From Candidatus Poribacteria bacterium (GTDB lineage: Bacteria > Poribacteria > WGA-4E > JAJDTR01): 64,000 bases of DNA. The notes beneath the pieces were generated by a model that saw nothing but the letters and a program-made list of their open reading frames with translations, was not told where the DNA came from and made no database searches. The DNA is taken from positions 758 to 64,757 of the forward strand of contig JAJDTR010000075.1 of assembly GCA_022827055.1 (NCBI GenBank), given 5' to 3'. Both the position numbers and the translations under genes were made by a program. Below, piece by piece: positions 17,141 to 55,874 of the stretch (the first letter of the stretch is position 1; each line of letters starts with the position of its first letter).

Positions 17141-17223
17141 GTATACTATCGCACTTGCTGTCCACTCGTTTGATCCTATTCAGACATTCGATCGCCTGTA
17201 GGAGCGATCTCCGAATCGCGACC
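17141..17223. repeat. Intergenic repeat family copy B
   Basis: Degenerate M1 module, then 48 bp identical to copy A (TTGATCCTATTCAGACATTCGATCGCCTGTAGGAGCGATCTCCGAATC). Confidence 0.7.
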
Positions 17224-17375
17224 TCACGACGATCTTCTACAGAGGTAGTGGCTAGCTGATAAAGAGAGAAAGAAGAGGAGAGTCACCATCAGCCGCCATT
17301 GGTATCCGTGCTGCTTGCAAACCTGCGACTTATTTTGAACTTCCGATACTTTCGCGTCGGATGATCGTCGGAAGC

Positions 17376-18533
17376 CTATGGCACGACGACCACTTTCATG
17401 CACTCCTCGGGCTGCATCGACCTCAGCATCGCCGATTCCGTTTGTAATAGCGGGTATTCGTGTGATACAAACTTTTCGAACGGGAATTGATCGGTATTCC
17501 GTAGCATCAGTTCCATGCTAGGGGTATAACCTGTGAAGGGGTGGTTGGTCATGCCGATGAGGCGGATATTCTTCGAACAGAAGTGGCGGTGCGGGCTGAG
17601 TGATACCTCCCCGGTATCGGCAAAGTTTCCCGGCTCAAGGTAAATGCCTCCTTTGCGCGTCATGTCCAGCCCTTCGGGCACGACCTCGGCGATGCCGGCG
17701 CACTCGATAACGATGTCGGCGCCGCGTCCGTGCGTTAGAGAACGAACAAAATCGACGCGCTCTTCCGATGTAGTTTCGGCGGCGTTGACGGTGTGATCGG
17801 CGCCGAACTCCTCTGCCAGTCCCAAACGGTATTCCGAGCGGTCAACCGCGATGATGTTGCCGGCACCCATCACGCGCGCTTTGATGAGGTGGCAAATTCC
17901 CATGGGTCCAACGCCTTGGATGACAACTGTGCTGCCGGTGGCGAAACCGTCGCCCGTGAGGGTGAATAGCTCCTTGGTCTTGTCGAGGTTATAGCTGACC
18001 GCCATGAGCTCCGCCATGACCGCGACGCGCAGGGGTATGCCTTCGGGCACCTTGTAGAGAAACGCGTTGGGCAGGATGTACATGTATTCCGCCCAACCTC
18101 CGAATAGGTGGGGCGATTCGGCGGAGGTGAAGGCGTTTCCGTAGCCCCGCAGATTCTCGCACCACGGAAACGCGAACGTATGCCGACATTCGTAGCATTC
18201 CCCGCACACAACGTCCGGACACAGCGCGACCCGATCGCCGACGCTCAACGGTTCGCCGTTGTAGTCGAGACGCGGACGTGCGCTGTCGTTGATTTCGGCG
18301 ATGACGCCAATGATTTCATGCCCCGGAATGATTGGAAACGGCGTATCGGATTCAGCGTCGGTGCCGGCGTACTGCTTCGTCTCGCCGCGCCAGGTGTGTT
18401 TGTCCGTACCGCAGATACCGCACATCTCGACCTTGAGGAGCACGGCGCCGTCTTCCAATTGCGGAAAGGGGAACTCCTGAATCTCAATCTTTCCCGGATG
18501 AACCATTACTGCGGCGTGTACGCTGTCGCCCAT
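17376..18533 (-). CDS. Zinc-dependent alcohol dehydrogenase (MDR superfamily; sorbitol/threonine-DH-like)
   Basis: CGICGTDKH catalytic-zinc motif, GHE, structural-zinc Cys cluster (CGECYEC), GxGxxG NAD site (IQGVGPMG). Confidence 0.85.
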   Translation of the reverse strand: MGDSVHAAVMVHPGKIEIQEFPFPQLEDGAVLLKVEMCGICGTDKHTWRGETKQYAGTDAESDTPFPIIPGHEIIGVIAEINDSARPRLDYNGEPLSVGDRVALCPDVVCGECYECRHTFAFPWCENLRGYGNAFTSAESPHLFGGWAEYMYILPNAFLYKVPEGIPLRVAVMAELMAVSYNLDKTKELFTLTGDGFATGSTVVIQGVGPMGICHLIKARVMGAGNIIAVDRSEYRLGLAEEFGADHTVNAAETTSEERVDFVRSLTHGRGADIVIECAGIAEVVPEGLDMTRKGGIYLEPGNFADTGEVSLSPHRHFCSKNIRLIGMTNHPFTGYTPSMELMLRNTDQFPFEKFVSHEYPLLQTESAMLRSMQPEECMKVVVVP

Positions 18534-18686
18534 GTTGTTTCCTCAGATTTACAGGTGCGCTCCATTCTTCTTAGGGGATAACAATCCTTATTCCCTACTT
18601 TGCCAAAATAGGAAGCGCGCCAAAAATCCCTCTGCCGCGCCGTAATCGTAAAAAGGGTTACGGCACAAGGAGTGTGCCTACTACTA

Positions 18687-35628: not shown

Positions 35629-37080
35629 CTACTCATCGCTCGGTTTGATTGATTCAAAGTAGCGTTTCACATAAAATTTGTAACCCAGCGGAATCTGTTC
35701 TTGCGTGAGGGCATCCTCGGAGAGTTTCTGATACTTGGTGTAAGCATCCTTGTAACTGACACCGGATTGCTGCCCCTCCGGGGATGATGCAACGGTTTGG
35801 ACAGCGGATGCACCTTCGCCCTGCACGCCGGTGATGCGCGTGAGATTCAGCGCGGAATCGAGTGATGTCAGTTCGCCGAGCTGACTTGCGGAAATTCCCT
35901 TGCCCGCCTTTTTACCACCTGCCGCCATACCTCCGCCGCTGCAAATACCGGCGATACCCGCTTTACACGCTTGACATTCGGAGAGCAATTTTGCCAGTCG
36001 CCAGTTGCGCTTCTTCAGCAGCCCAAAGTTGCGAATTTTTCGGCTCGATTTACTTAGGCGCGTTTGCGTGCCTTCACTATCGCCGGCGTCTAATGCTTCC
36101 CCTGCTCCGGATAGCTCAGAACCGAGTCCATCAAAGTCGGTGTTCTGCAAACCTTTTCCACCCCGTTTCAGTGCGTCGGAGATGTTTTGCCGTTTCTCTT
36201 TGTCAATCTTTGGAACTGTCTTCGCTACCTTGTCGAGGTCGGAAGCGGCTTGTTGGTAATCGCCGCGTTTCAACCGTTGTCCAAACTCGCCAAGATACGG
36301 ATTTCCAACAAACTGCTGTCCGAGCCCTCTCATCAATTCTTCCTGCCTTGCCATCTTGACGGGATCGACCTTGGTTTTCAGCAATGCGCTCAACTCCGTC
36401 ATACGGGCAAGTGCTTCCTTGGGCGCAATCTGCGGTTTTTTCAACTCAAGCGCTCGTTCTTCAATCTGGTTCAAAATGTCCTTGAGTTCTTGGTCTTCGT
36501 CCTGTTCGGCTTCCTTTTTTGCTTCCGTGATTTGCTTCAGCAGGGACTCTGCCTCGGCAGCGATTTGCGGTGAGAAGTCGATTTCGGTTGAAATTGCCGG
36601 GGGTGCGAAAAATTCAATGAACGAGAGCGTAACGAGAAACACGGCGATGAGGAGGACAAATTTTGTCTCTCGCGGAACGGTGTAACGCGCAACTTTAGCT
36701 ACGGGAACCGCTTGTAACCTGTTGGATGTGTCTCGAAGTTGAAGTGTCGTGAGAGTTTCATCGGTTTGATGTTGAATCTGCTCCAACCCGCTTACGACAC
36801 GGTCCTTAAGCGATGCGCCCATGTCAATTGACCGTGCGGCGTCATAGAGGCTCACCGGTCGAATAAGGCGAACAACCAAAGCGATTAGAGCAATGCCAAG
36901 CGCCATCCAGAGAAGCGTCCACTGCGGGATATTGAAGGTAGTCAAACTGTCGATTAATAGCACCGGTAGACACGCCAGAGAGCCGTAGAATAGAAACTGC
37001 GCAAGGGTTTGAAAATACCGCTGCACGGTCAAGCGAGAACGTACTTGTCGGATTTTGGTGAGGATCAGTTCTTCAGGCAT
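35629..37080 (-). CDS. Membrane protein (two TM regions, then a long low-complexity/coiled periplasmic region), first gene of the MoxR-DUF58-vWA operon
   Basis: 483 aa. TM pairs near residues 30-70 and 150-175. Lys/Glu/Gln-rich C-terminal half. Its stop lies 8 bp before the moxR start. Confidence 0.55.
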   Translation of the reverse strand: MPEELILTKIRQVRSRLTVQRYFQTLAQFLFYGSLACLPVLLIDSLTTFNIPQWTLLWMALGIALIALVVRLIRPVSLYDAARSIDMGASLKDRVVSGLEQIQHQTDETLTTLQLRDTSNRLQAVPVAKVARYTVPRETKFVLLIAVFLVTLSFIEFFAPPAISTEIDFSPQIAAEAESLLKQITEAKKEAEQDEDQELKDILNQIEERALELKKPQIAPKEALARMTELSALLKTKVDPVKMARQEELMRGLGQQFVGNPYLGEFGQRLKRGDYQQAASDLDKVAKTVPKIDKEKRQNISDALKRGGKGLQNTDFDGLGSELSGAGEALDAGDSEGTQTRLSKSSRKIRNFGLLKKRNWRLAKLLSECQACKAGIAGICSGGGMAAGGKKAGKGISASQLGELTSLDSALNLTRITGVQGEGASAVQTVASSPEGQQSGVSYKDAYTKYQKLSEDALTQEQIPLGYKFYVKRYFESIKPSDE

Positions 37081-37182
37081 CGGTCAACTCCTTTCTCAGC
37101 TAATACGGGGTTGCTCTGCAATTTTATAACACATCGGTAACATCGGTAAAAACCTCAATGCCGAGTTTTTCGGCGACATCAA

Positions 37183-37809
37183 TTACACCGGGCTTGAAAA
37201 ATGGACATACAACCAGTTCCGATCAACTTTCCGATTTTCCTGGGCTTCGTAGAATTCGACAACGCGCTCCAACGTATAAACGTCGGATCGATTCATTGAG
37301 GATTTAATCTCGATAAGCATGAGTTTACCGTCCCGAATCACGACATCTATTTCAACCTGAGCTGGATGACCATGAACGCGTCCTTCCGTGTCGTGCTTGA
37401 TATAGTTTTCTACCTCAAAACCCAAGTCGCTCAAGATACCGCTCAGGGCTTCGCGGAATGACGCTTCGGACTGAACCCCCCACCGAGCACCGATAGCGTG
37501 TACCGTTCGGTCTAGCTTTGCCACATTCTTATCGGTCTGTTGCTGGGCTAGGGCTAAGTCCTTAACCGTGGCAGAGAGTTCCGCGACGGATTCGTCTGTC
37601 CTTGTCTGTATTTGTGCAAGTTCTTTGACGCTTTGTTCGGTGTCTTTCTGTGCTTGTGCAAGTTCTTTGATGCTTTGTTCAGTCTCGTTTCGGGCCTGGG
37701 CGGCTTCCCTCAACGCGGCGCGCGTCTCCTTCTGATCTCGGGCTAATTCGGCGACAATTTCCTCTAAACGCACTGAATCCTCCATATTCGTTGCTCCGGC
37801 AGTTGCCAA
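37183..37809 (-). CDS. Coiled-coil + C-terminal PD-(D/E)XK-like domain protein (DUF3782-like architecture)
   Basis: The N-terminal half contains a 14-aa tandem duplication (EQSIKELAQAQKDT / EQSVKELAQIQTRT), encoded by two 42-bp DNA units at 37606-37689. The C-terminus ...VEIDVVIRDGKLMLIEIKSSM fits a D-x(n)-(D/E)-x-K nuclease-fold motif. An alternative start is Met9, which has a GGAG upstream. Confidence 0.5.
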   Translation of the reverse strand: MATAGATNMEDSVRLEEIVAELARDQKETRAALREAAQARNETEQSIKELAQAQKDTEQSVKELAQIQTRTDESVAELSATVKDLALAQQQTDKNVAKLDRTVHAIGARWGVQSEASFREALSGILSDLGFEVENYIKHDTEGRVHGHPAQVEIDVVIRDGKLMLIEIKSSMNRSDVYTLERVVEFYEAQENRKVDRNWLYVHFSSPV

Positions 37810-37835
37810 ACTATCTTACTTCTCACTTCAGATTG

Positions 37836-40800
37836 TTACTTGCCAGTAGAATCCTCCGCCAACTCCAAATCCGGAAGAGCCTTGCCATCCGTGCCGGTGA
37901 TTCGTAGATGGAATCCCCAGGACGAAGTCTCGTTGGAGACCTTGACCAAGATGCTGTTTTCTCCCGCTTTCAGGGTGGCGGGAACAATGTGCCGGTCAAT
38001 TCCTTGGGGTTCGGAATGAATATCGGTGTCAATATTTGCTTGAGTGAAGATCTCCTCCCCGTTTAGCCACACCTTCGATTGATCATCACTGCCGAATCGT
38101 AGATGAACTTCGCGTTCGTCCGGAGAGGCGACTGATGTCCAAGCATACGCCGTCACCCAATCCGAGTTCCCTTTGAAGATTTTGTTGAAATCGACGTAAC
38201 CGTCGAATCTGTCATCATTCCGCTTTTCCCACCCAACCTGTCCACCAACCCCCGGAAATTGCGTCTCCGTGTCGATTTGTGCAGCGTTTTCCGAAATATG
38301 CGCCACATTGTAGCCGATTCCCGACTTATTGTCAAATGGTCCGATAACCGACCATGCACTCTCGGCAATGAAACCGGTTCGGTTCATATAATCCAATACT
38401 TTATCGGGTTGATCGTGTTCACGATAGTATTGTGCCAACGCGAGGTCGGCGTGTAGTTGGTTAACCAGTGAATTGGAACCTGCTTTCTTCAAATTCTCGA
38501 CCATCTCAAGGAAACGCTCTTCGTCGCTTGCATTTTTGCCGGCTTGTGCAACGTGCCTCCACATCCATTCTGCCGCTTGCGCGAAATTCGTACCGGGATG
38601 AGTCATGTTGTTCATGCTGATCTTAAACTGTTCCAGTGCCTCCTCGTATCGTCCGTTGGCGACATACGCCCTCGCCACAGTAGAAGCGTGATACCAATTC
38701 CCTCCAATCTGAGATCCGCGCTCGGCAAGTTCCAGCGCCTTTTCCGGCAGGATGTTTTTGTCGAGAAGTCTTTGAGCCAAGTTCACATACTCCCAAGGAC
38801 GTTGCGTCGGGGCCACCTCTTTTTGACGAAGTTTCAGCCATTCTGTGTATGCGGCATCCGATTTTTCAAAATTGTCCGTTTTTCTGTAGGCATCGCCCAA
38901 TAACTCGTGCACATTAGGCCTCGCCGCCATGCTGGTCCTGAATTCTTCAAGGATGGCGATGCCTTCGTCATATTTCGATTTGTCGGCATAGAGACTCCAG
39001 ATACCTGCAAGCGCTCTATCGTGATCGCTCTTTTCTAGCGGAGCGTCTAGCGCTTGGCGATAAACGGCTATAGCCTCCGATAATCTATCTCCCTTCGCGA
39101 GAGTGCCTGCCAACAGGTTGTAATGTTCATACGAGTCCGGTTCAATTTCGACTGCTTTTCTGTAAGCGGCCGCTGCCTTTGCCGAATTCTCCATTCCCTC
39201 CGGTTGTTTTTGGTATAGATCTCCGATCGTTTTGTGCCATCGCGCCTCGTCGGGTTGAAGTTCGCTGAGTTTCCGGTAGTGGTCAATGGCTTCGGTGGGC
39301 ATATTGTTCCACTCGTAGGACTGGGCAAGAGCAAAGCGGGCATCGGGGTCGTCAGGGTTCTCTTCAACCTTCTTCAATCGTTCGAGGATTTGCTTTTCGT
39401 AGAGGTTCCCGGCTCTGTATGCTCTATGTATCGCCGTTTCCGCTTTTTGTCGAGTCCAGTCCTGCCGGGCTACGTTTGCCATCTGCTGATAGGCGTCGAC
39501 CGCCTCTTCGTACCGTTCTGCACCGAGATAGCAATTTCCGAGCAATCCATACATTTCTTCCTGTCCCCAACCACCGCCGCCGTACCTGGCGCTTTCGGCA
39601 ATCGCATCGTGGACGAGCTTTATTGCCGGGGCGTACATCTCTCCGTCGACACAGATAGTGGCGAGTGCGGCGAGGTACCACATGTCGTTTTTTTGATGAC
39701 TAGCCGAAAGCGCAACTTCCCCTTGACTTAGCATTGTTTTAGACATGTCCGAATTGCGGCTCCGGTTGAATGCTGCCGCTGCGTAAAAGAAACTCCGAAC
39801 ATTGCTCGGTTGGGCTTTGGAGAGAGATTGATAGGCTTCGGCAGCCTGTCCGTGTTGGTTCGCGTTTCTATAAATCTCGGCAACCATTTCAAGGAGCGCG
39901 GGATTATCCGATTCCGTTTTGAGCCGATCTTCAAAATGGGTTTTCAACTGCTCAAGTTTTCCGTCGTTTTTGTACGCGGTAATTAGTGTTTCACGCGCCT
40001 GATCTCCTCCGAGCATGACTTTGATACCGGATGGTCCGTGGCTGATCGACATGCCCCTGGAAGCCGATCTCGACAACTCTTCGCTGATTTCTATCGCCAA
40101 GTCATTCTCGCCAAGCTGCACGTATACCATCACCAACTCGTTGTAAATATTGTCCTTCTCCCAGCTTTGGGCAGTCATGTCGAGCGCTTTCTTGTAGGTT
40201 TCGACGGCTTTCTCCAGTTTACCCTCATTCCGAAAACCTCGGGCGCGCTCCTGCAGCATCTCCATTGTGAGAGTGCCCTCCTCTTCCGCTTTCTTCAGCA
40301 TTTCCTCCAACTTGCCCTGACGCCGGTAGATTTGCGTGAGTTGCCGTTCGATTTCGCGCCGATCCCATTCCTGTCCGGTATATTGAACGGCTTCTTTGAA
40401 TGCCGCCTCTGCGGAATCCAAGTCGTCTTTACGAAGATAGAGCTGCGCTATTTCACTGTAGACCTCTCCGTTTCCGGGAGCAAGTTCAACCGCTTTTTTG
40501 TAGGTTTTGAGGGCGTCATCGACTCGATCTCCGGCGGCGTACACCCTCGCGAGACGGATGTAATGAACGCCGATGTCAGCTTCTTGATTGACGTACTCTT
40601 GGGCGACTTCAAGAGCTTCGGCGAATTTGTCGGCGGACTGCAAGGAGTTGACGAGTCCGTCCTGATACTTCGTGTTCTCCGGATCGACTTCAAGCAGCGA
40701 TTTCCAAGCGTCGATTGCCTCGCTGTGTTGACTTTGGCGTGTATAGATAGTCGCGAGTTGGGCGCGAGATTCCAGGTCCTCCGGCATTACTTTCACTATT

Positions 40801-43800
40801 TGACGGTATATTTCCGCCGCCTTCTTGAGTTGATTCTGCTGCATGTACTGTCCCGCCAACGATCGTTGAGTACCGACGTTGAGTTCTCCCGCTTTTTCCG
40901 CCAGTCGGGTTGTCGTCGTCAATCCGTCTCGTCTCTGTTTAATCTGCATCAACTGTTGCTGCGCCTGTTCTCGGGTCCAACGTTGCGCGGAAAGGTCGTT
41001 GATGATTTCGGTAAGCACTATTTCGGCATCATCCCACATCTCGTGCTGCATGTATGTGGTCGCCACCCGTTCTTTCTCCCATGGGCCGCCTCCGCGGTTC
41101 TGTAGAAGGGTGATCGCGCCCATCTTGCGAAGCGTGTTCCGCGCTTTCTCTTTCTCGTCTTGCCGGAAGTAGGCTTCGCCAAGCTTCTGGTAGACATCTG
41201 ACACATTCCACCAGTTCCGAGGATCAAGTTTCTCCGTCGCGGTTTCAAGCAAACGGATTTCTCGCTCTCGACCATTTGCACCGCGGTAAGCATCAGCCAG
41301 TACCTTTAGCAACTCCGGGTTCTCCAGCATCGAAGTATCATTCAGTAATTGATTCACAAGAGGATCGGATTCGTCAAGTTGATCCGCCGCAATTTTTAAA
41401 GATGCCACGAGATACAGCAGCGTTGAATCGCTAGGATCCTCGCTGAGTTTGGCTTCGTACTCAGCGGTATAGCTTTCTACGTTATCGGAGGCCTTATAGA
41501 GTTCAATTAGTTTAGAGACTATTTGTGCCTGTGCGTACGAGTTTTGTGAAATCGATGCACCGTCGGCCTCCAGCTTTTCGCGTAGAAACTGAATTGCTTT
41601 TTCGCGCTCGCCGGAAGCGGCGTATGCCGATGCCAGATTCGCGTACATGTGGTGCTGATTGGGTTGTGCCTTGACTATCTTTTCGTAAATATCAGCCGCC
41701 GCTTTCGGGTTGTTGTTTTGCGTACACTGGTATGCCGCATTTCGCGCAAAATCGTTCCCATAGTTCCGCCCGAAAGACGGCGCAATCATAACTTTTGCAA
41801 GTGAAACCAGTTCCTCAACCTTGCCGGCTTCGAAGAACGTCTGAATTACCTCCCAGGTGTTGTGACCAAGCGCGTTGGGGTTCTCCTCAAGGAGGGTTTT
41901 GAACTGAGTTAAGGCTTCATCCGCTTTTCCGCTGCGCTGCAGCATTTGGGCATACCGCTGACGTGTCCTACCATCTTTTGGGCGCAGTTTGAGCGCCGCC
42001 TCGAACGCCGCAGACGCCTTGTTGATCTGATTTGTGCTATCGTAGAACGCCGCCAATCGCGCCTGAGCCTGGAATGAATCAGGATTCTTCCGCGCGCCTT
42101 CAAGTAATTGTGGTTCCCGCTCGCGCGCGGCTTTGGAACGACTCACCAGATGTGTGGCTCGCTGAAAGTTCCATGAGTGCAACGTCTGGCCGTGGCGATC
42201 GCGTTGGTTGGCGAATCGCAGCGCCCGCTCGGCTACGCTTGCGGCGTCCCGGCCTCTGCCAAGTTCTTCCAAGTGCTGGCTGAGTTCCATAAGGAAGTTC
42301 GGATCACGTTGACTCATCGATAGCGTCATCACCTTCTTGGCAGCCGCGATTGCAAATTGAGTCAGACCGCTCTGCTGCAGTTTTTTTGAGAACTCGTAAA
42401 GTTCCCGGACGCCGCTCGGCGAATTTAACACTTTAGACATCAACTCGCGCACCTTGATTGTGTTGCCGGTAAGCACGGCGAGCTGTAAAGTAAGATTGTA
42501 ATATTGACGGCGATTTCGCGGGTCACTCCTCGCGAGTTCATCCAGTAGTTGCAACGCTATCGCGTGATCACCTGTCTGAATCGATACAAAAACGGCATTG
42601 ATCTTGAGCGTTAAGTCTTCCGGATTATCAATCTGCAATCTCGAGAGTATTTCTTGCGCTTGCCCCCGTTTTCCTTCCCACCAATGACAGTAGCTTAGTG
42701 CCAAACTTGGATAGATGCGGTCTCTCCCTTCCGTCGTCTCCAAATCCGCGCGAAGTTTGGTGTAAAAAGTCTCCTGTTGATTTTTCGTCCAGAGTTGTAG
42801 AAAAACCTGCTGAAGATACTCCAAACGGAGTTGATTGTAGTAAGTCGTTGGCGATGGATAGGTCGACTGGAGCGGAGTGTACCCGCTGTAAGAGTATTGC
42901 GCGTACGACAACGACGCCACTCGCCGGGCGTTTGCCAAAACAGGTTTGGTCCTCTCAAAGAACGTCCAGAGAACGTCAACGCCTTTTTCTATATTTCCGT
43001 CGCGCACATAAGCCGCCGCAAGCGACTGGTAGATGTTTCTATACCGCCACCACTGCTGCTGGGGAATTGAAGGTGCGCGCATACCGGAGGGTTGTCCTGC
43101 TGTCTTTGGAACCGAAAGTTGGGCGAGGATGTTCTCGGCAACGTCAAACTTCCCTTGCTGTGCAAATGCATCGATAAGCGTTGCACCGGTGTTCAAATCG
43201 GTCACGTTTGTCGTGTCAAGTTCGCCAAGCATTCGTGCGGCTTCCTCCTTCTGTCCCCGAGTGTAAAGACGCATGGAAAATCGCGCAATATGCGAGAGGC
43301 GTACTTCGGGCTTGAGCGCAGTCATCCCGTCAAGGTGTTTTTTGAAGGTTCCGTAATCAGCGTTCTGGCGCATTAACTGCGTCAATCGCATGTCCTGATA
43401 AACCGGATCGCTCGGTGACGCGGCAATGAGACGATCGGTAATTCCTTGAACCTTGTCGTTGTTTTCAGTCAAGACATAAATCTGAACCAAGAGTTCCAGT
43501 TTCTGAATATCTCTTGGATTCGCATCCGCGTCTTCCTCGAATTTCCGGACAAACTCATCCAATTCTCGCTTTTGTTGTGCGATTGTTGCCAATTGCACCA
43601 GTGCGGCGGCTTGAGTTTCTTCGAAACTGTTAGGTATCCACGGTTGCCCGCTACCGGAAGAGCGTTGTCCCTGTACATTCCAAACTAAGTTCCGCGCAAG
43701 ATTTAAGTTGCGCGAACCGATGCCGGGCAGCCCTGATCCCGTCTGATTCGCAGTAGCTTTGCCACCCTTCGCCGGTTTATCCACCGGTTTAGGCATTTCC

Positions 43801-46664
43801 AGTATCCGTACAAAATGCGGGCGGGCGCGGTCTAATTCATTCATCTGGACCAATGCTGCGCCAACCTGATAAATCGTCTTCGCGTCCTTCGCTTTTCCGC
43901 CGGCTCGGTCAAGCGCGGACAGCGCCTCCTGTATCAGTCCGTGCCGAATCAGCAATGCCGCGAGTTTGACTTCAGCCTCCAACGACTGACTCCTGGCATG
44001 CAGTAACTTTGTCCACACTTGAATCGCTTCCTGCTCCCGTCCCGCATCGAACAGCAGTTCGCCGAGTCGCTGCTGGTGAAACGGATCCGGCTTTACTTTG
44101 ACGAGACGCCCTTGATAGGTCAATGCATCCTGTGTGTCGCCGAGGTCCAGGCTGATTCTAACTAGCTCAGTCAATAGGTCAGGGTTTTCGTGTTCCCTTT
44201 CCAATGCTCGCGCCAATTGGAATTGTGCACCGGGTAGATCGCTCTTCATACGGTAAACGGCAGCCAATGCCAGAATGGGACTCGTGTCGGAAGGACTGAT
44301 TTTCGACATCTGCTTTAGCTTCTCTTCAAATTCATTGCCCCGACCCAGGTCGTAATACGCTTCGGAAAGTGACTTGACAAAACCGAGCTTATTGTCCACG
44401 CTTTCGCTCAATTCCCAGCATCGCCAATACTGATCGATTGCCTGCCGCGGGTTGCCGGCAAGTTTGTAGATTTCTGCGAGATCCGCTCGAATGTCGGTTG
44501 CTTCCGGGCGAAGACGAACCGCCTGCTTGAGGTAGTCCGCCGCAGATTCGTAGTTGCCTAGTTGCTTTGATATTTCGCTCTGCAACCGATACCCTTCGGG
44601 GTTACGTGGACTGTGCAGCACAACCTGTCTTGCCGCCTCTGTTGCGGCATCGGAATCCATCATGTCCAGATGGATCCGCGCTATGTCTGTGTAGTATTCG
44701 CGCGCATTCGCTCCGTCAATTTCGATTAAATGGTAGTAGATGGCGTTGGCTTCATCGCCTCTGCCCTGCTGTGCATAGATTTCTGCGAGCCACCGATTGA
44801 TGTAGATATCGCTGGATTTTAGGGTTCTGGCTTTCGTTAACACCTCGACGGCGTAGCTAGTGTTACCCAATTTGAAGTACATCTTGACGAGCTGCTTTTG
44901 CCCTTCGAAGGCAGTCGCTGCGGAAACATCGGGCTCCGCAAGTTTCGCTTCCAGCTCATCAATCTTCTCTACGAGTGTCCCCTGACGCCGATAGAGTTCA
45001 ATTCTCCGATCATCCATCCGGTCGGCGAAGAATTCGTTAGGAGCAAGATTTGCCGCTTCCGTGTATTCCGCCAACGCCCCCCCATAGTCTTTGTTTTCCA
45101 TCAGTCGGTTCGCCAACTCTTCACGATACTGAAACGAATCGGGACTTAGTTCAACCGCCTTTCTGCTTGCGGCGATAGCTTCCGCGCGGAATTCCTTTGC
45201 ATCAAGCAACTGTGCCAGCCGATGATAATTTGCCGCGACCGACTTATCGCCATCGACCATCCGATTCCACGTCTCAAGGGTCTTTGCGCGATCACCATGA
45301 CGCAGATAAAACTCGCCGAAATACTCAATGTAATCAGGGTTATCGGGTGCGAGCGAGACAGCCATCTCATATTCTGCAACGGCATCATCTACCCATTCAT
45401 GACCGGCGTAGATCTCCGCGAGGATGAGGCGGGTACCCGCGTTCTCCGGGTCGTGATCTGTCATCCTCTGATAGGTTGCTCGCGCCTTCTCTTCATCGTC
45501 TAACTGCAGATATAATTCCCCCAGTTCACGGTAAATACCGAAATCATCGGACTGTTGCTTGCTTAGGGCTTCGTATTCCGCCGCCGCGTCGCCGAATTTT
45601 TCCGCGCTGCGCAGGGCGGCAATCAAATTCAGGCGCAATCCCGTATCGGTCGGCGCGAGCGCCAACCCTTTACGGTACTCGACAACTCCTTCATCCGGCT
45701 GCTGGTTCTCCATATACGCCGAAGCCAACAGGCCGATTATCTCGGGGTCATTTGGTGACGTTTCAATTTTGGCTTGATAGTATGCAATTAAGCCTTCCCA
45801 ATCGCTGTCGGCGGCGTATATGCCCACGACGCGTTGACGGAGGTCTTTGCGAAGCCAATTTCCCGGTGCCGTCAGCGCAATCGCCGCGTCGTAACTTTCA
45901 ATGGCTCGCTGAAACTCCCCCGTTTCCTCGTGAATTTTGCCAATTTCCCGAAGACTCAAGCAGACGCGATACGCGTCGTCTTTCTTGATCTCCGTTATTG
46001 CTTGGTGTTGTGCGATGGCTTGCTCGTAGAGTTCCTGCTCACGAAACAGGTCGGCGAGTTCAAGGCGTGCGAAAACGTTCTCTGGGTCAAGTTCCGAGAT
46101 TCTCGTCCACGCCTCAATTGCCTCGTCCACCATATCCCGCCTGAAGTAGGCACGCCCGAGAGATTTGTAAATCGTGGTCAGGTCATCGGGCGCTACGGAC
46201 TGCGACTCTTCCGACAACTCTGTTGCCTTGGACAGTTCGGCTATCGCGTCTTCATGGCGGCGTAACACCGCATACATCTGCCCTAGGGCGAAATGGGGAT
46301 AATAATCGTTGGGGGCTAGTTCTGCAGCGCGTTGGTAAGCAGCGACGGTCTCGGCATCTTTGCCGATCCGTTTGTAAAGGTGTCCCAGGACAAGCTGTGC
46401 ATTCGGATCATCGGGACTAGAGTTTGCCTCCGCTTCATAGTCCGCAATCATGGCGTCCAAGCCGGCGCCTTCAAGATAAAGCTGGTATAGCCGGTCGAAC
46501 GCATTTCCTTCCTTCGGATTGCGTTTGAGCATCTTTTTGTAGCGTTGAATGACTTTTTCGTCGATAGTCCCGTCCTGTGCGAGAATCGTTGATGAATGAC
46601 ACAAGACGTAGGAAGCCAAACACAGGAGACACACGACAACTCGATGCGTTTTTTGTTCAAGCAT
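37836..46664 (-). CDS. Giant secreted TPR-repeat protein (2942 aa) with a C-terminal GH2-N / galactose-binding-like beta-sandwich domain
   Basis: A single uninterrupted ORF. N-terminal signal peptide (VVVCLLCLASYVLCHSSTILA). AGGAGG RBS 6 nt upstream of the ATG at 46664. More than 2700 aa of consecutive 34-aa TPR units (W-LG-Y...A...F...A...P patterns). The last roughly 190 aa contain WSVIGPF...KVWLNGEEI...LKAGENSILVKVSN, which resembles the GH2 sugar-binding jellyroll. Confidence 0.8.
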   Translation of the reverse strand: MLEQKTHRVVVCLLCLASYVLCHSSTILAQDGTIDEKVIQRYKKMLKRNPKEGNAFDRLYQLYLEGAGLDAMIADYEAEANSSPDDPNAQLVLGHLYKRIGKDAETVAAYQRAAELAPNDYYPHFALGQMYAVLRRHEDAIAELSKATELSEESQSVAPDDLTTIYKSLGRAYFRRDMVDEAIEAWTRISELDPENVFARLELADLFREQELYEQAIAQHQAITEIKKDDAYRVCLSLREIGKIHEETGEFQRAIESYDAAIALTAPGNWLRKDLRQRVVGIYAADSDWEGLIAYYQAKIETSPNDPEIIGLLASAYMENQQPDEGVVEYRKGLALAPTDTGLRLNLIAALRSAEKFGDAAAEYEALSKQQSDDFGIYRELGELYLQLDDEEKARATYQRMTDHDPENAGTRLILAEIYAGHEWVDDAVAEYEMAVSLAPDNPDYIEYFGEFYLRHGDRAKTLETWNRMVDGDKSVAANYHRLAQLLDAKEFRAEAIAASRKAVELSPDSFQYREELANRLMENKDYGGALAEYTEAANLAPNEFFADRMDDRRIELYRRQGTLVEKIDELEAKLAEPDVSAATAFEGQKQLVKMYFKLGNTSYAVEVLTKARTLKSSDIYINRWLAEIYAQQGRGDEANAIYYHLIEIDGANAREYYTDIARIHLDMMDSDAATEAARQVVLHSPRNPEGYRLQSEISKQLGNYESAADYLKQAVRLRPEATDIRADLAEIYKLAGNPRQAIDQYWRCWELSESVDNKLGFVKSLSEAYYDLGRGNEFEEKLKQMSKISPSDTSPILALAAVYRMKSDLPGAQFQLARALEREHENPDLLTELVRISLDLGDTQDALTYQGRLVKVKPDPFHQQRLGELLFDAGREQEAIQVWTKLLHARSQSLEAEVKLAALLIRHGLIQEALSALDRAGGKAKDAKTIYQVGAALVQMNELDRARPHFVRILEMPKPVDKPAKGGKATANQTGSGLPGIGSRNLNLARNLVWNVQGQRSSGSGQPWIPNSFEETQAAALVQLATIAQQKRELDEFVRKFEEDADANPRDIQKLELLVQIYVLTENNDKVQGITDRLIAASPSDPVYQDMRLTQLMRQNADYGTFKKHLDGMTALKPEVRLSHIARFSMRLYTRGQKEEAARMLGELDTTNVTDLNTGATLIDAFAQQGKFDVAENILAQLSVPKTAGQPSGMRAPSIPQQQWWRYRNIYQSLAAAYVRDGNIEKGVDVLWTFFERTKPVLANARRVASLSYAQYSYSGYTPLQSTYPSPTTYYNQLRLEYLQQVFLQLWTKNQQETFYTKLRADLETTEGRDRIYPSLALSYCHWWEGKRGQAQEILSRLQIDNPEDLTLKINAVFVSIQTGDHAIALQLLDELARSDPRNRRQYYNLTLQLAVLTGNTIKVRELMSKVLNSPSGVRELYEFSKKLQQSGLTQFAIAAAKKVMTLSMSQRDPNFLMELSQHLEELGRGRDAASVAERALRFANQRDRHGQTLHSWNFQRATHLVSRSKAAREREPQLLEGARKNPDSFQAQARLAAFYDSTNQINKASAAFEAALKLRPKDGRTRQRYAQMLQRSGKADEALTQFKTLLEENPNALGHNTWEVIQTFFEAGKVEELVSLAKVMIAPSFGRNYGNDFARNAAYQCTQNNNPKAAADIYEKIVKAQPNQHHMYANLASAYAASGEREKAIQFLREKLEADGASISQNSYAQAQIVSKLIELYKASDNVESYTAEYEAKLSEDPSDSTLLYLVASLKIAADQLDESDPLVNQLLNDTSMLENPELLKVLADAYRGANGREREIRLLETATEKLDPRNWWNVSDVYQKLGEAYFRQDEKEKARNTLRKMGAITLLQNRGGGPWEKERVATTYMQHEMWDDAEIVLTEIINDLSAQRWTREQAQQQLMQIKQRRDGLTTTTRLAEKAGELNVGTQRSLAGQYMQQNQLKKAAEIYRQIVKVMPEDLESRAQLATIYTRQSQHSEAIDAWKSLLEVDPENTKYQDGLVNSLQSADKFAEALEVAQEYVNQEADIGVHYIRLARVYAAGDRVDDALKTYKKAVELAPGNGEVYSEIAQLYLRKDDLDSAEAAFKEAVQYTGQEWDRREIERQLTQIYRRQGKLEEMLKKAEEEGTLTMEMLQERARGFRNEGKLEKAVETYKKALDMTAQSWEKDNIYNELVMVYVQLGENDLAIEISEELSRSASRGMSISHGPSGIKVMLGGDQARETLITAYKNDGKLEQLKTHFEDRLKTESDNPALLEMVAEIYRNANQHGQAAEAYQSLSKAQPSNVRSFFYAAAAFNRSRNSDMSKTMLSQGEVALSASHQKNDMWYLAALATICVDGEMYAPAIKLVHDAIAESARYGGGGWGQEEMYGLLGNCYLGAERYEEAVDAYQQMANVARQDWTRQKAETAIHRAYRAGNLYEKQILERLKKVEENPDDPDARFALAQSYEWNNMPTEAIDHYRKLSELQPDEARWHKTIGDLYQKQPEGMENSAKAAAAYRKAVEIEPDSYEHYNLLAGTLAKGDRLSEAIAVYRQALDAPLEKSDHDRALAGIWSLYADKSKYDEGIAILEEFRTSMAARPNVHELLGDAYRKTDNFEKSDAAYTEWLKLRQKEVAPTQRPWEYVNLAQRLLDKNILPEKALELAERGSQIGGNWYHASTVARAYVANGRYEEALEQFKISMNNMTHPGTNFAQAAEWMWRHVAQAGKNASDEERFLEMVENLKKAGSNSLVNQLHADLALAQYYREHDQPDKVLDYMNRTGFIAESAWSVIGPFDNKSGIGYNVAHISENAAQIDTETQFPGVGGQVGWEKRNDDRFDGYVDFNKIFKGNSDWVTAYAWTSVASPDEREVHLRFGSDDQSKVWLNGEEIFTQANIDTDIHSEPQGIDRHIVPATLKAGENSILVKVSNETSSWGFHLRITGTDGKALPDLELAEDSTGK

Positions 46665-54318: not shown

Positions 54319-54504
54319 TACCTCCAGTGTTAGCAGACTCGGTTCGGATGCGGGGCATCGCGCCAATTATAGATTTCGTTTCAAAACGTGTCAACGGAAA
54401 ACAACCCGTCATGAGCCGCAGGGGGTCACGCCGCTGTTGTTTCTTCCCGCAATGATGTGATAACATGATGCGAAAGATAATATCTTGGATAGAAGGATGA
54501 AATC

Positions 54505-55665
54505 ATGGACGACAAGAGAGGTTACCGGCATCAAGCACTGACGGTTTGCACGCTTGGCGGGGCGCAGGTGGGCAAGACCTCACTCACTGCAGCAATGACA
54601 AAGGTGGTGTCTCGAATCGGCTCGACGCCGGTAGACGCGGGCGACATCGAATCACAGCCGCCATTTCACCACCCGATCGGGGACGGCGTAGGTCTCGATT
54701 ATCGCGCCATCGACTATGAAACGAGCGGGAGACACTACACGCAAATCGACTGTGTGAGCCATCTGGATACCGTCAAGATGCTGATTGCCGGCTCGCCAGA
54801 TGTGGGAGGGGCAATTTGGGTCGTAAGCGCGGTCGATGGGGTAACCGAATCGTCCGAGACGCAAATTCGGCTTGCGCGCCAAACTCGCATCCCCGTCATC
54901 ATTGCGTTTCTCAACCAAACCGATAGGGTTGAGGATCCGGAGTTGATTGAGATTTGCGCGGCGGAGATTCGCGAGCTTCTCACGGATTACGGTTATGAAG
55001 AAGCAAACTCCCCGATAATCGTTGGCGACGCGCTGAAAGCGCTGAGATACAAGGGGCACAGTCTTAATTCGGAGGACTGGAAGCCGATCGTTGATTTGAT
55101 ACTTGCGATGGGCAGATGCATGCCTCAACCGGTAAACCCGGCGAATCTGCCGCTGCTCATGCCGATACGCGAAGTATCCGACGATCCGAAAGGGATATCG
55201 ACACTGCGCGGCGATGTCATCCAGGGCGGGCTAGCTGTCGGACACGCCGTTGATGTTGTAGGGAAAGGAGAGCGGGTCAAAACGCGCTTGGTCGCATTGC
55301 GAGATGACGAGGTACAGGTTGATGCCGAACCCGGTTGGATTTCTCCGGGACAGGTGGTGTCGGAACCGAAGAGCATAAAATCCCATACTGTCTTCGAAGC
55401 GGCGGTCTATGTCATGACACCGGAGGAATGCAAGACACACGTGCCGCTTGTTGGCAACGATAAACCCGAAATTCATCTCTGGACTATCGATGTTACCGGC
55501 CACCTCCGTCTGCCTCCCGACATTCCGATGGTCAACCCGGGGGAGCACGCGCATGTGTCCGTCTCCCTAGACGTGCCAATGGCGCTGCAGGTTGGCGCGC
55601 GGTTTGAGATTAAGAAGATGGGAGCGCGGATTGGGATGGGCGTCGTGACCGAAATTGTGGAATAA
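54505..55665 (+). CDS. EF-Tu-like paralog with degenerate GTPase motifs (all three EF-Tu domains present)
   Basis: Collinear with EF-Tu across domains 1-3. The P-loop is retained (GGAQVGKTSLTAAMT against GHVDHGKTTLTAAIT). G2/switch I RGITI becomes DGVGL. G3 DCPGH becomes DCVSH. G4 NKCD becomes NQTD. Domain 3 DVTG is conserved (WTIDVTGHLRLP). 386 aa. Confidence 0.8.
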   Translation: MDDKRGYRHQALTVCTLGGAQVGKTSLTAAMTKVVSRIGSTPVDAGDIESQPPFHHPIGDGVGLDYRAIDYETSGRHYTQIDCVSHLDTVKMLIAGSPDVGGAIWVVSAVDGVTESSETQIRLARQTRIPVIIAFLNQTDRVEDPELIEICAAEIRELLTDYGYEEANSPIIVGDALKALRYKGHSLNSEDWKPIVDLILAMGRCMPQPVNPANLPLLMPIREVSDDPKGISTLRGDVIQGGLAVGHAVDVVGKGERVKTRLVALRDDEVQVDAEPGWISPGQVVSEPKSIKSHTVFEAAVYVMTPEECKTHVPLVGNDKPEIHLWTIDVTGHLRLPPDIPMVNPGEHAHVSVSLDVPMALQVGARFEIKKMGARIGMGVVTEIVE

Positions 55666-55874
55666 GCGCAGATTGAAATAGATAGAGCGAGGAGAGTGGC
55701 CTCACGCATTAAGTGGAAGGAGGGAAGATTGGAAGGGCGGAATGGATGCAAATGAATTTGGATAGGAAAAGGTAAAAGCAGATTCACGATAATCAAATCA
55801 CCAATCCTCTCCGATTTGGAAGAAAGAAACCGAGTTTTCGGGGAAAAACTCGGTTTCAAGACAAGGGGAAAACA

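Follow-up and report, generated by a model that had tools for sequence, protein, structure and literature searches.

An EF-Tu paralog of Poribacteria with a kept P-loop and lost switch residues is a candidate pseudo-GTPase

What might an elongation factor Tu (EF-Tu) be for, if the residues that read the gamma-phosphate of GTP are gone and the rest of the fold is kept? The question is raised by a gene on a stretch of 64,000 nucleotides from Candidatus Poribacteria bacterium (contig JAJDTR010000075.1, positions 758 to 64,757), which is the whole of the DNA analyzed and is called the window here. The gene is an open reading frame (ORF) at 54505..55665 on the + strand, with an ATG start and 386 aa. 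The original prediction, made by eye from the sequence, had named it a full-length EF-Tu paralog with an intact P-loop and degenerate GTPase motifs. The reading that we lean towards, with some reservation, is that the paralog is a functional, EF-Tu-derived, conformationally locked pseudo-GTPase that is restricted to Poribacteria and acts by binding.

Descent from EF-Tu is the firm part. By phmmer against the Protein Data Bank (PDB), residues 12-386 are collinear with bacterial EF-Tu over all three domains at ~35-38% identity (E = 2e-69), just as predicted, and the tracts quoted in support (TSLTAAMTKV, DCVSH, AFLNQTD, ALKALRYKG, LPLLMPIREV, and TIDVTGHLRLP) are all there. Bacterial and ancestral-bacterial EF-Tu score far above mitochondrial EF-Tu in that search, and an origin in eukaryotes or mitochondria was discarded. 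The Pfam scan aligns GTP_EFTU, the EF-Tu GTP-binding domain, with residues 11-183 (E = 8e-23) and GTP_EFTU_D3 (PF03143) with residues 290-384 (E = 1e-15), and has no match of the paralog to GTP_EFTU_D2 (PF03144). The NCBIfam equivalog model for EF-Tu, TIGR00485, aligns end to end at 244 bits versus a cutoff of 522.4, which is below half, and three EF-Tu subfamily models give 249-254 bits versus cutoffs of 449-479. Models for EF-1alpha and EF-G score far below those for EF-Tu, while the SelB model TIGR00475 obtains 36.5 bits versus a cutoff of 242.25 from a match that covers the G domain alone; the paralog ends at EF-Tu domain 3 and has no SelB-like C-terminal extension domains. The paralog is therefore a member of the EF-Tu superfamily by descent that fails the tests by which EF-Tu itself is defined, and its relatives are annotated variously as "hypothetical protein", "GTP-binding protein", and "elongation factor Tu" in the source records. 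An identical protein is also present on a second contig.

The features of the gene, several of which bear on what the protein can do, are these:

54505..55665, + strand: complete coding sequence of the EF-Tu paralog (386 aa and stop), from the ORF list, the collinear EF-Tu match, and intact orthologs at 84 other loci.
54492..54497, + strand: Shine-Dalgarno-like GAAGGA, 7 nt 5' of the ATG, read from the sequence; the block and the ATG are conserved in the subclade A upstream alignments.
54556..54579, + strand: G1/P-loop GGAQVGKT, aa 18-25, kept except that the Asp21 equivalent is Gln.
54655..54702, + strand: remodeled switch I, aa 51-66, QPPFHHPIGDGVGLDY, with Gly63 as the equivalent of Thr61, from the alignments.
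54748..54762, + strand: G3/switch II DCVSH, aa 82-86, with the Asp and His kept and the Gly of DxxG changed to Ser.
54913..54924, + strand: G4 NQTD in place of NKxD, aa 137-140.
54937..54984, + strand: helix D, aa ~145-160, PELIEICAAEIRELLT, the most canonical-like surface segment.
55024..55035, + strand: G5 GDAL in place of GSAL, aa 174-177.
55126..55371, + strand: remodeled domain 2, aa ~208-289, from the lack of a PF03144 match, the residue map, and the deletion.
55372..55662, + strand: domain 3, aa 290-386, an EF-Tu domain 3 fold with shifted tRNA T-stem contact residues, from PF03143 and the residue map.

Motifs were assigned from HMMER and MAFFT alignments, two independent methods, and residues were counted over 85 copies in subclades A-C of the family (84 fetched and the window copy) versus 105 canonical EF-Tu including that of E. 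coli. The roles assigned to the residues compared (pocket, tRNA, EF-Ts, and phosphate contacts) are those they have in E. coli and Thermus EF-Tu. The two methods agree with each other and with the by-eye reading, which disposes of the concern that a shifted alignment might have hidden an intact DxxG or NKxD. In G1, GHVDHGKT has become GGAQVGKT, a P-loop that still fits GxxxxGKT, with Gly18, Gly23, Lys24, and Thr25 kept here and invariant in 85/85 copies; Asp21 is Gln in the paralog and G, Q, or E across the copies. In G2, RGITI has become DGVGL and Thr61 of switch I is replaced by Gly63. In G3, DCPGH has become DCVSH, so that the Gly83 of DxxG is Ser, and this position holds Thr in 49 and Ser in 32 of the 85; Asp80 is kept in every one. 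G4 changes from NKCD to NQTD by way of Lys136 to Gln, with Asn135 kept throughout and the two variable places occupied by K/T/Q/P (136) and E/N/G/D (138). G5 changes from SAL to DAL, and the replacement of Ser173 by Asp (Asp175 of the paralog) is found in all 85 copies. Asp21 mediates monovalent-cation binding in the P-loop (Atkinson 2015, PMC4342817). From these residues it appears that the holders of Mg2+ and of the alpha- and beta-phosphates are kept and the gamma-phosphate-specific elements are gone throughout the family, and that G1 alone remains of the complete G1-G5 set.

More broadly, of the classified positions with 90% or higher conservation among canonical EF-Tu, 62 are kept, 35 are fixed differently or deleted, and 70 are unconstrained, while 23 positions are newly constrained in the A-C copies. 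Lys89 (invariant) and His319 are also kept, and helix D retains Asp142, Glu144, Leu145, Glu152, and Leu157, with Leu148 changed to Ile. A separate observation is a set of invariant or near-invariant residues that is family-specific and absent from canonical EF-Tu: H9, C15, Q51, P53, H56, I58, Y66, W192, W278, W326, and K370-K371-M372. Three Trp belong to this set, as does a rebuilt switch I rich in His (PxHHPI), and subclade D shares C15, W192, P194, D319, W326, K370, and K371.

Could all this be an artefact, whether a pseudogene in decay, a mistake of sequencing or assembly, or the sole tuf of the genome evolving fast? What speaks for it is that no canonical tuf lies within the window or 88 flanking loci. 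Nonetheless it is effectively refuted by the family. A search of 5.8 billion proteins collects over 120 clusters, which share 52-96% identity and with few exceptions are 386-407 aa long, and when each GTDB species is represented by one genome, a relative is encoded in 146 of the genomes scanned. Locus-level and taxonomic data were taken for the best 80 of the 146, by source names. These 80 loci are 80 different metagenome-assembled genomes (MAGs) with one copy each, 77 of them titled Candidatus or uncultured Poribacteria and three titled "uncultured bacterium" only; about 40 are closed long-read chromosomes of 4-6.8 Mb, and the others include short-read MAGs. All 85 copies examined are intact ORFs, and the pattern recurs in long-read and short-read assemblies made independently of each other, which excludes sequencing error. 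The ratio of nonsynonymous to synonymous substitution rates (dN/dS) has a median of 0.09 and a range of 0.05-0.23 (Nei-Gojobori, 615 pairs with dS 0.05-1.5), with 0.098 for the G domain, 0.061 for domain 2, which is the lowest, and 0.082 for domain 3, and the motif states are clade-conserved. A protein with its aminoacyl-tRNA pocket deleted, and scoring under half the TIGR00485 cutoff, could not be a sole elongation factor. The paralog is a real, functional gene under strong purifying selection, and as far as sampled the family is confined to the sponge-associated phylum Poribacteria. A pseudoGTPase is expected to keep a GTPase fold under purifying selection, to have lost one or more G motifs clade-wide, and to hydrolyze nucleotide poorly or not at all; the first two are found here, with Thr61 and Gly83 lost in all four subclades and G4 and G5 in A-C, and the third would be predicted.

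The homology search and phylogeny proposed with the original prediction also show that the motif changes belong to a clade. When 1.84 billion representatives clustered at 50% identity were searched exhaustively with phmmer, two only stood well above the canonical EF-Tu level, P0024 at 594 bits and P0121 at 292 bits, and the rest scored 215 bits or less. P0121 heads a small subclade, D, whose three members with NCBI names are all Candidatus Poribacteria bacterium. By neighbor-joining with 100 replicates, the family A-D is monophyletic with respect to canonical EF-Tu in 100/100 bootstraps, with 100/100 for subclades A-C and 99/100 for D. Mean identity is 0.77 among canonical EF-Tu, 0.34 between A-C and canonical, and 0.45 between D and canonical. 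The subclades are as follows:

Subclade A, which contains the query: 86-96% identity to the query, G1 GGAQxGKT, G3 DCVSH, G4 NQT(D/E), G5 GDAL.
Subclade B: 61-71% identity to the query, G1 GGxxHGKT, G3 DGLSH, G4 NKAE, G5 GDAE.
Subclade C: 52-58% identity to the query, G1 GAxGHGKT, G3 DCETH, G4 NT(RN/GG), G5 GDAx.
Subclade D: ~44% identity to the query, G1 GH(L/F)GHGKT, G3 DCV(N/D)H, G4 NKID, G5 GSAK.

Thr61, Gly83, and Asp21 are missing in all four. Guanine recognition and the aminoacyl pocket are lost in A-C only; subclade D has ES(G/D)IPIA for switch I and keeps the pocket motif IEDVF. Since subclade D has lost the switch residues alone, the switch appears to have gone first, before base specificity and the tRNA pocket.

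The structure model that had been proposed as a check was built with AlphaFold2 from a 115-sequence family alignment, and it predicts an open, GDP-like fold with ordered switches. The mean predicted local distance difference test (pLDDT) score is 89.7 and the predicted template modeling (pTM) score is 0.88, with pLDDT 88-94 in the blocks spanning residues 51-100 and switch I formed as a beta-hairpin (E54-59, E62-73). The top Foldseek matches in the PDB are open GDP-form EF-Tu with template modeling (TM) scores of 0.8-0.9, including the Balon-bound 8rdw, and no GTP-form EF-Tu is among the top 50. Against 6mij, 1d8t, 1tui, and 1efc the TM scores are 0.86-0.89, and for the three-domain fold of EF-Tu the figure is 0.88-0.90. 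As a control, a canonical EF-Tu (Chloroflexus, P0318) was modeled by the same protocol with a 98-sequence alignment. In the control, switch I (54-64) and switch II (89-97) have pLDDT <50 and the pTM is 0.78; the superimposition on the closed GTP forms 1eft, 1exm, and 1ttt scores TM 0.92-0.93, versus 0.54-0.56 on open forms with a root mean square deviation of ~10 A. This contrast between the two models is a prediction, and it fits a paralog fixed in the open shape. The open shape of EF-Tu does not bind aminoacyl-tRNA.

The next point of interest is whether the protein might still carry some tRNA, since the pocket residues are not simply worn away. The pocket motif IEDVF is IREVS in the paralog, domain 2 lacks ~20 residues (E. 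coli ~260-281), and His66, Asp216, Phe218, Asn273, Glu215 (to R/Y/H), Thr228 (to R/Y), and Glu259 (to K/R) are replaced; Phe261-Arg262 is deleted in the A-C copies. A specialized carrier of a non-canonical tRNA or tRNA-like ligand, with a rebuilt and more basic pocket for an unusual acyl group, would make sense of the conserved basic and aromatic character at 215, 228, and 259, of the lowest dN/dS being in domain 2, and of the invariant Lys89. We regard it as very improbable nevertheless. The pocket is short of two strands, and in the A-C copies there are changes at Asn90 and Arg288, which contact the tRNA 5' end, and, of seven T-stem contacts, at Arg318, Gln329, Thr338, Arg377, Glu378, and Gly379 (R318T, R377K, E378K, G379M). 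A carrier with no GTP switch would also have no release mechanism, and the modeled form is the open one, which is not the form that binds tRNA. As judged from these alignments, neither the aminoacyl-tRNA pocket nor the tRNA contacts of EF-Tu seem to be left. The destruction of the pocket had escaped the original prediction, as had the kept catalytic His and the strain-specific nature of a leucine-rich repeat (LRR)-dockerin neighbor, both taken up below; the tRNA-mimicking role that it floated finds no support.

The same part of domain 2 shows a further peculiarity in subclade B (e.g., P0033, P0049, P0053), which has a variable, acidic, low-complexity insertion of 6-20 residues (alignment columns ~284-303) at the site where A and C have their deletion relative to EF-Tu. 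This suggests a surface loop that tolerates change, left behind when the pocket strands were lost.

The mechanism that we propose for the locked paralog would run as follows. With the phosphate and Mg2+ holders Gly18, Gly23, Lys24, Thr25, Asp80, and Asn135 kept, a nucleotide would still be held; with the gamma-phosphate readers Thr61 and Gly83 and the Asp21 cation site lost, it would no longer drive a cycle of GTP and GDP shapes; and in the sponge-associated subclades guanine recognition (Lys136, Asp138, Ser173) and the aminoacyl-tRNA pocket are lost as well. The protein would then be permanently open and GDP-like, with a nucleoside diphosphate or a non-specific nucleotide as structural cofactor, and it would act by partner binding and not by catalysis. 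The arena might be the ribosomal factor-binding site, where it could park or modulate ribosomes as open EF-Tu-GDP does on hibernating ribosomes, and the gene would be transcribed alone from a sigma-70-like promoter, without a dedicated operon partner. These steps are not equally secure. That the paralog is unable to act as a GTP-driven switch or to deliver aminoacyl-tRNA has good support, and the suggestion that it is probably not a translational GTPase stands up in that the motif losses are real, family-wide, and under purifying selection. That it is locked open with a nucleotide cofactor and acts by binding has moderate support.

The placement of the partner at the ribosomal factor site is speculative and by analogy. 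Helix D of canonical EF-Tu binds EF-Ts and bL12. We propose this site because helix D is kept and because open EF-Tu(GDP) occupies hibernating ribosomes, where it binds via bL12, helix 5 (h5) of the 16S rRNA, and Balon, with domain I contacting the bL12 C-terminal domain (PMC10901736). In its most explicit form, the paralog would be a dedicated, constitutive "off-state" EF-Tu, which in the sponge-associated lineages may read another nucleotide via Asp175, and it would park or throttle ribosomes by docking at their stalk or factor site. We offer this form tentatively, as a conjecture that would more probably fail than hold. A regulatory role, which had also been suggested by eye, or a ribosome-binding one is what we infer in general terms.

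Several findings weigh against the locked scaffold, and the first of them also lend themselves to a rival. Of the 85 copies, 74 still have the catalytic His84 (His86 of the paralog) and 78 have Asp86, and this counts against the scaffold because neither would be necessary in a pure one. The invariant Asp of G5, together with NxxE-type G4 motifs in 30/85 copies, could mean changed nucleotide specificity and not lost function. An NxxE G4 motif accompanies ATP preference in YchF/OLA1. The main rival is then an active nucleoside triphosphatase (NTPase) or switch with altered specificity, e.g., for ATP, in which the P-loop, Asp80, His84, Ser/Thr83, and Asp175 re-form an active site and base pocket. 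Besides the His and the invariant Asp80, Lys24, and Thr25, it can point to position 83, which is almost always hydroxylated and so not random, and to the change of Ser173 to Asp, which is fixed exactly in the subclades where Asp138 is no longer conserved; D keeps NKID and the Ser, and the pair looks like compensation. Even so, no subclade retains either of the universal gamma-phosphate sensors or the cation site at Asp21, the free variation at 136 and 138 among close relatives is unexpected of a defined base pocket, and the switches are modeled as one ordered state, unlike those of the canonical control. We consider such an enzyme unlikely, though worth keeping in mind.

The remaining points against the locked scaffold are of a different kind. 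Its conformations are AlphaFold predictions, and its nucleotide binding and lack of hydrolysis are predicted from residues. The 16S h5-contact loop, residues 219-226, is replaced in the A-C copies and the EF-Ts contacts His19, Gln114, and His118 are changed, so that, with h5, T-stem/Balon, and several EF-Ts contacts not conserved, ribosome binding, to go by the alignment, could not be canonical. Clustering of neighboring ORFs across the examined loci finds no neighbors common to different subclades; anti-phage defense profiles give 0 families by PADLOC at E <= 0.01; and there is no Rfam match at E <= 1 for a regulatory RNA or leader. Then there is the canonical tuf. A tblastn search of the window and 84 loci with E. 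coli EF-Tu matched the paralog only, and our literature search for Poribacteria with TIGR00485 found nothing. We infer that the same genomes do carry a canonical tuf, because a protein without the tRNA pocket cannot be the sole elongation factor.

The gene surroundings are as the original prediction had them: within the window, the paralog gene stands alone, divergent from a PhyH gene and upstream of an LRR/GHL15/dockerin gene. That downstream gene (55875-57878, + strand) is found in the window genome only, inserted between the paralog and accA, which is directly 3' of the paralog in other subclade A genomes, and it is a strain-specific insertion with no bearing on the function of the paralog. 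By the clustering of neighboring ORFs, synteny exists within subclades only: PhyH and EamA in A, an M20 peptidase at 18/24 loci in B, a His_biosynth gene and an ABC transporter in C, and AP_endonuc_2 in D. The M20 genes of B and D are not mutual BLAST hits. A link from PhyH as a 2-oxoglutarate (2OG) oxygenase to the prolyl hydroxylation of EF-Tu (P4H-EF-Tu, PDB 4IW3) was considered and dropped, because this synteny is limited to the subclade. Upstream regions are not conserved between subclades, with sigma-70-like hexamers and a ribosome-binding site the only elements visible, which suggests constitutive, monocistronic expression. Neither a str operon nor a tRNA-tufB-secE-nusG setting, which are typical of EF-Tu, surrounds the gene; a tblastn search of the window and 88 loci with nine tuf-flanking or EF-Tu-partner genes found nothing, and rpsL, rpsG, fusA, rpsJ, nusG, rplK, and tsf are absent there.

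The neighbors also bear on a non-translational role, in which the protein would moonlight in a cytoskeletal or chaperone-type function or be a decoy, an EF-Tu mimic that absorbs phage or toxin factors. The fold is fully kept while the translation-specific contacts are lost, the PDB matches of the model include EF-Tu-GDP bound by toxins or effectors (Tse6 4zv4, CdiA 7vmc, P4H 4iw3), and some loci have defense genes nearby (AAA_15/AAA_21, restriction-modification). The defense neighbors are not conserved, however, and a defense system was rejected on the negative PADLOC result. A stable single copy across the phylum, at a dN/dS of 0.09 and with sigma-70-like promoters, is housekeeping-like and not what an arms race would produce, and the surfaces that mimicry would need are the ones that changed. 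We give this role a small chance.

Some observations on the surrounding DNA may be put on record. Where the PhyH ORF is annotated to begin, the - strand carries a sigma-70 promoter that matches the consensus at 12/12 positions (TTGACA, 17 nt spacer, TATAAT; 54366-54394), and its -10 hexamer abuts the TTG at 54366 that is listed as the PhyH start. Translation of PhyH may therefore begin further downstream, the protein being 295 aa in other sources versus 312 aa here. An inverted repeat with a 14-bp stem (GAAACCGAGTTTT...AAAACTCGGTTTC) at 55826-55857, ~160 nt past the paralog stop and before the LRR gene start, is possibly a terminator or an insertion-boundary element. AT skew is strong at -0.12 to -0.24 over 36001-46000 of the window and +0.155 at 26001-28000, and ~0 elsewhere, suggesting that those stretches hold very long or compositionally unusual genes. 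On the subclade D contig L087, a UvrB gene at 17217-20939 has an intein bearing a LAGLIDADG endonuclease domain, an MmeI-type restriction-modification gene lies close by on the upstream side of the paralog, and there is a Cas6 gene where the locus ends.

How does the paralog compare with what is known? With canonical EF-Tu in the open form (e.g., 1EFC, 1TUI, 6MIJ) it shares the three-domain architecture, the length, the P-loop, Asp80, His84, Asn135, helix D, and much of the domain 3 core; it differs in lying outside the str/tufB operon and in being predicted, from the models, not to visit the closed state. EF-Tu is among the most conserved and best-studied proteins in biology, and the only bacterial EF-Tu-like subfamily clearly distinct from it in the 2015 survey is actEF-Tu/EF-Tu3 of Streptomyces, a condition-specific, antibiotic-resistant translation factor (Atkinson 2015, PMC4342817), which is active. 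Like actEF-Tu, the paralog is a lineage-restricted extra copy that escapes gene conversion with the main tuf; unlike that active factor of Actinomycetales, it forms a Poribacteria family without the switch and tRNA-pocket residues. Our literature searches turned up neither a degenerate bacterial EF-Tu paralog nor a pseudoenzyme among the translational GTPases of bacteria. The paralog would be a clear bacterial pseudo-enzyme from a core translation factor, and a handle on what an open, "off" EF-Tu is able to do, be it ribosome parking, stalk occupancy, nucleotide sensing, or a role outside translation. The series of subclades from D to A-C would be a natural experiment in dismantling a molecular switch, and the family is a candidate signature gene of Poribacteria on which automated annotation is inconsistent.

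The paralog may also have company. Among 127 full-motif EF-Tu-like representatives nearest the query, which cover G1, G3, and G4 (P0121-P0269) in a list biased by the degenerate query and the 50% clustering, 119 keep the P-loop, 70 keep DxxG, and 57 keep Thr61. Fifty of them have an intact P-loop and a lost DxxG glycine, often with Thr61 lost too, and most still have NKxD and SAL. The dead-DxxG forms include DCPAH, DCCSH with a Cys-rich insert, DYPSH, and ~690-aa proteins with a ~300-aa N-terminal extension; their clusters include one with a protein of the cultured Ktedonobacter sp. SOSP1-85 (WP_201389998.1, "GTP-binding protein") and another with a protein labeled Priestia megaterium. These score 215 bits or less, versus 292-594 within the Poribacteria family, and are no closer to it than canonical EF-Tu is. 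The motif counts suggest that EF-Tu-like proteins with dead gamma-phosphate sensors may be more widespread than the literature indicates.

Other paralogs of the EF-Tu family with remodeled ligand pockets, as the one here has, are SelB, the nematode mitochondrial EF-Tu1/2, and the archaeal SelB-like MM1309. All of these remain GTP-dependent carriers. GMPPNP- and GDP-bound forms are among the crystal forms reported for MM1309 (PMC4329189). The septin pseudoGTPases (PMC10731463) resemble the paralog in keeping a GTPase fold under selection with clade-conserved decay of the G motifs, and they function by binding and assembly; they are eukaryotic and come from GTPase families unrelated to it. The nearest analogy in action is EF-Tu(GDP) on the Balon-ribosome (PMC10901736; 8RDW, 8V9L), where open EF-Tu sits on an inactive ribosome via the bL12 C-terminal domain, 16S h5, and a domain-3 partner, and is antagonized by GTP. 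Entries of that system are among the structural matches of the paralog model, but it uses ordinary EF-Tu, and the h5 loop of domain 2 and the tRNA/Balon contacts of domain 3 are changed in the paralog; a Balon homolog did not turn up, though none was looked for, and the likeness is one of analogy only. If the off-state idea is true, the paralog would be a hard-wired version of the role of EF-Tu-GDP in Balon-type hibernation, the first bacterial pseudo-GTPase to be described that descends from a translation factor, and the best-sampled member of a wider, unrecognized class of EF-Tu-like proteins with dead sensors.

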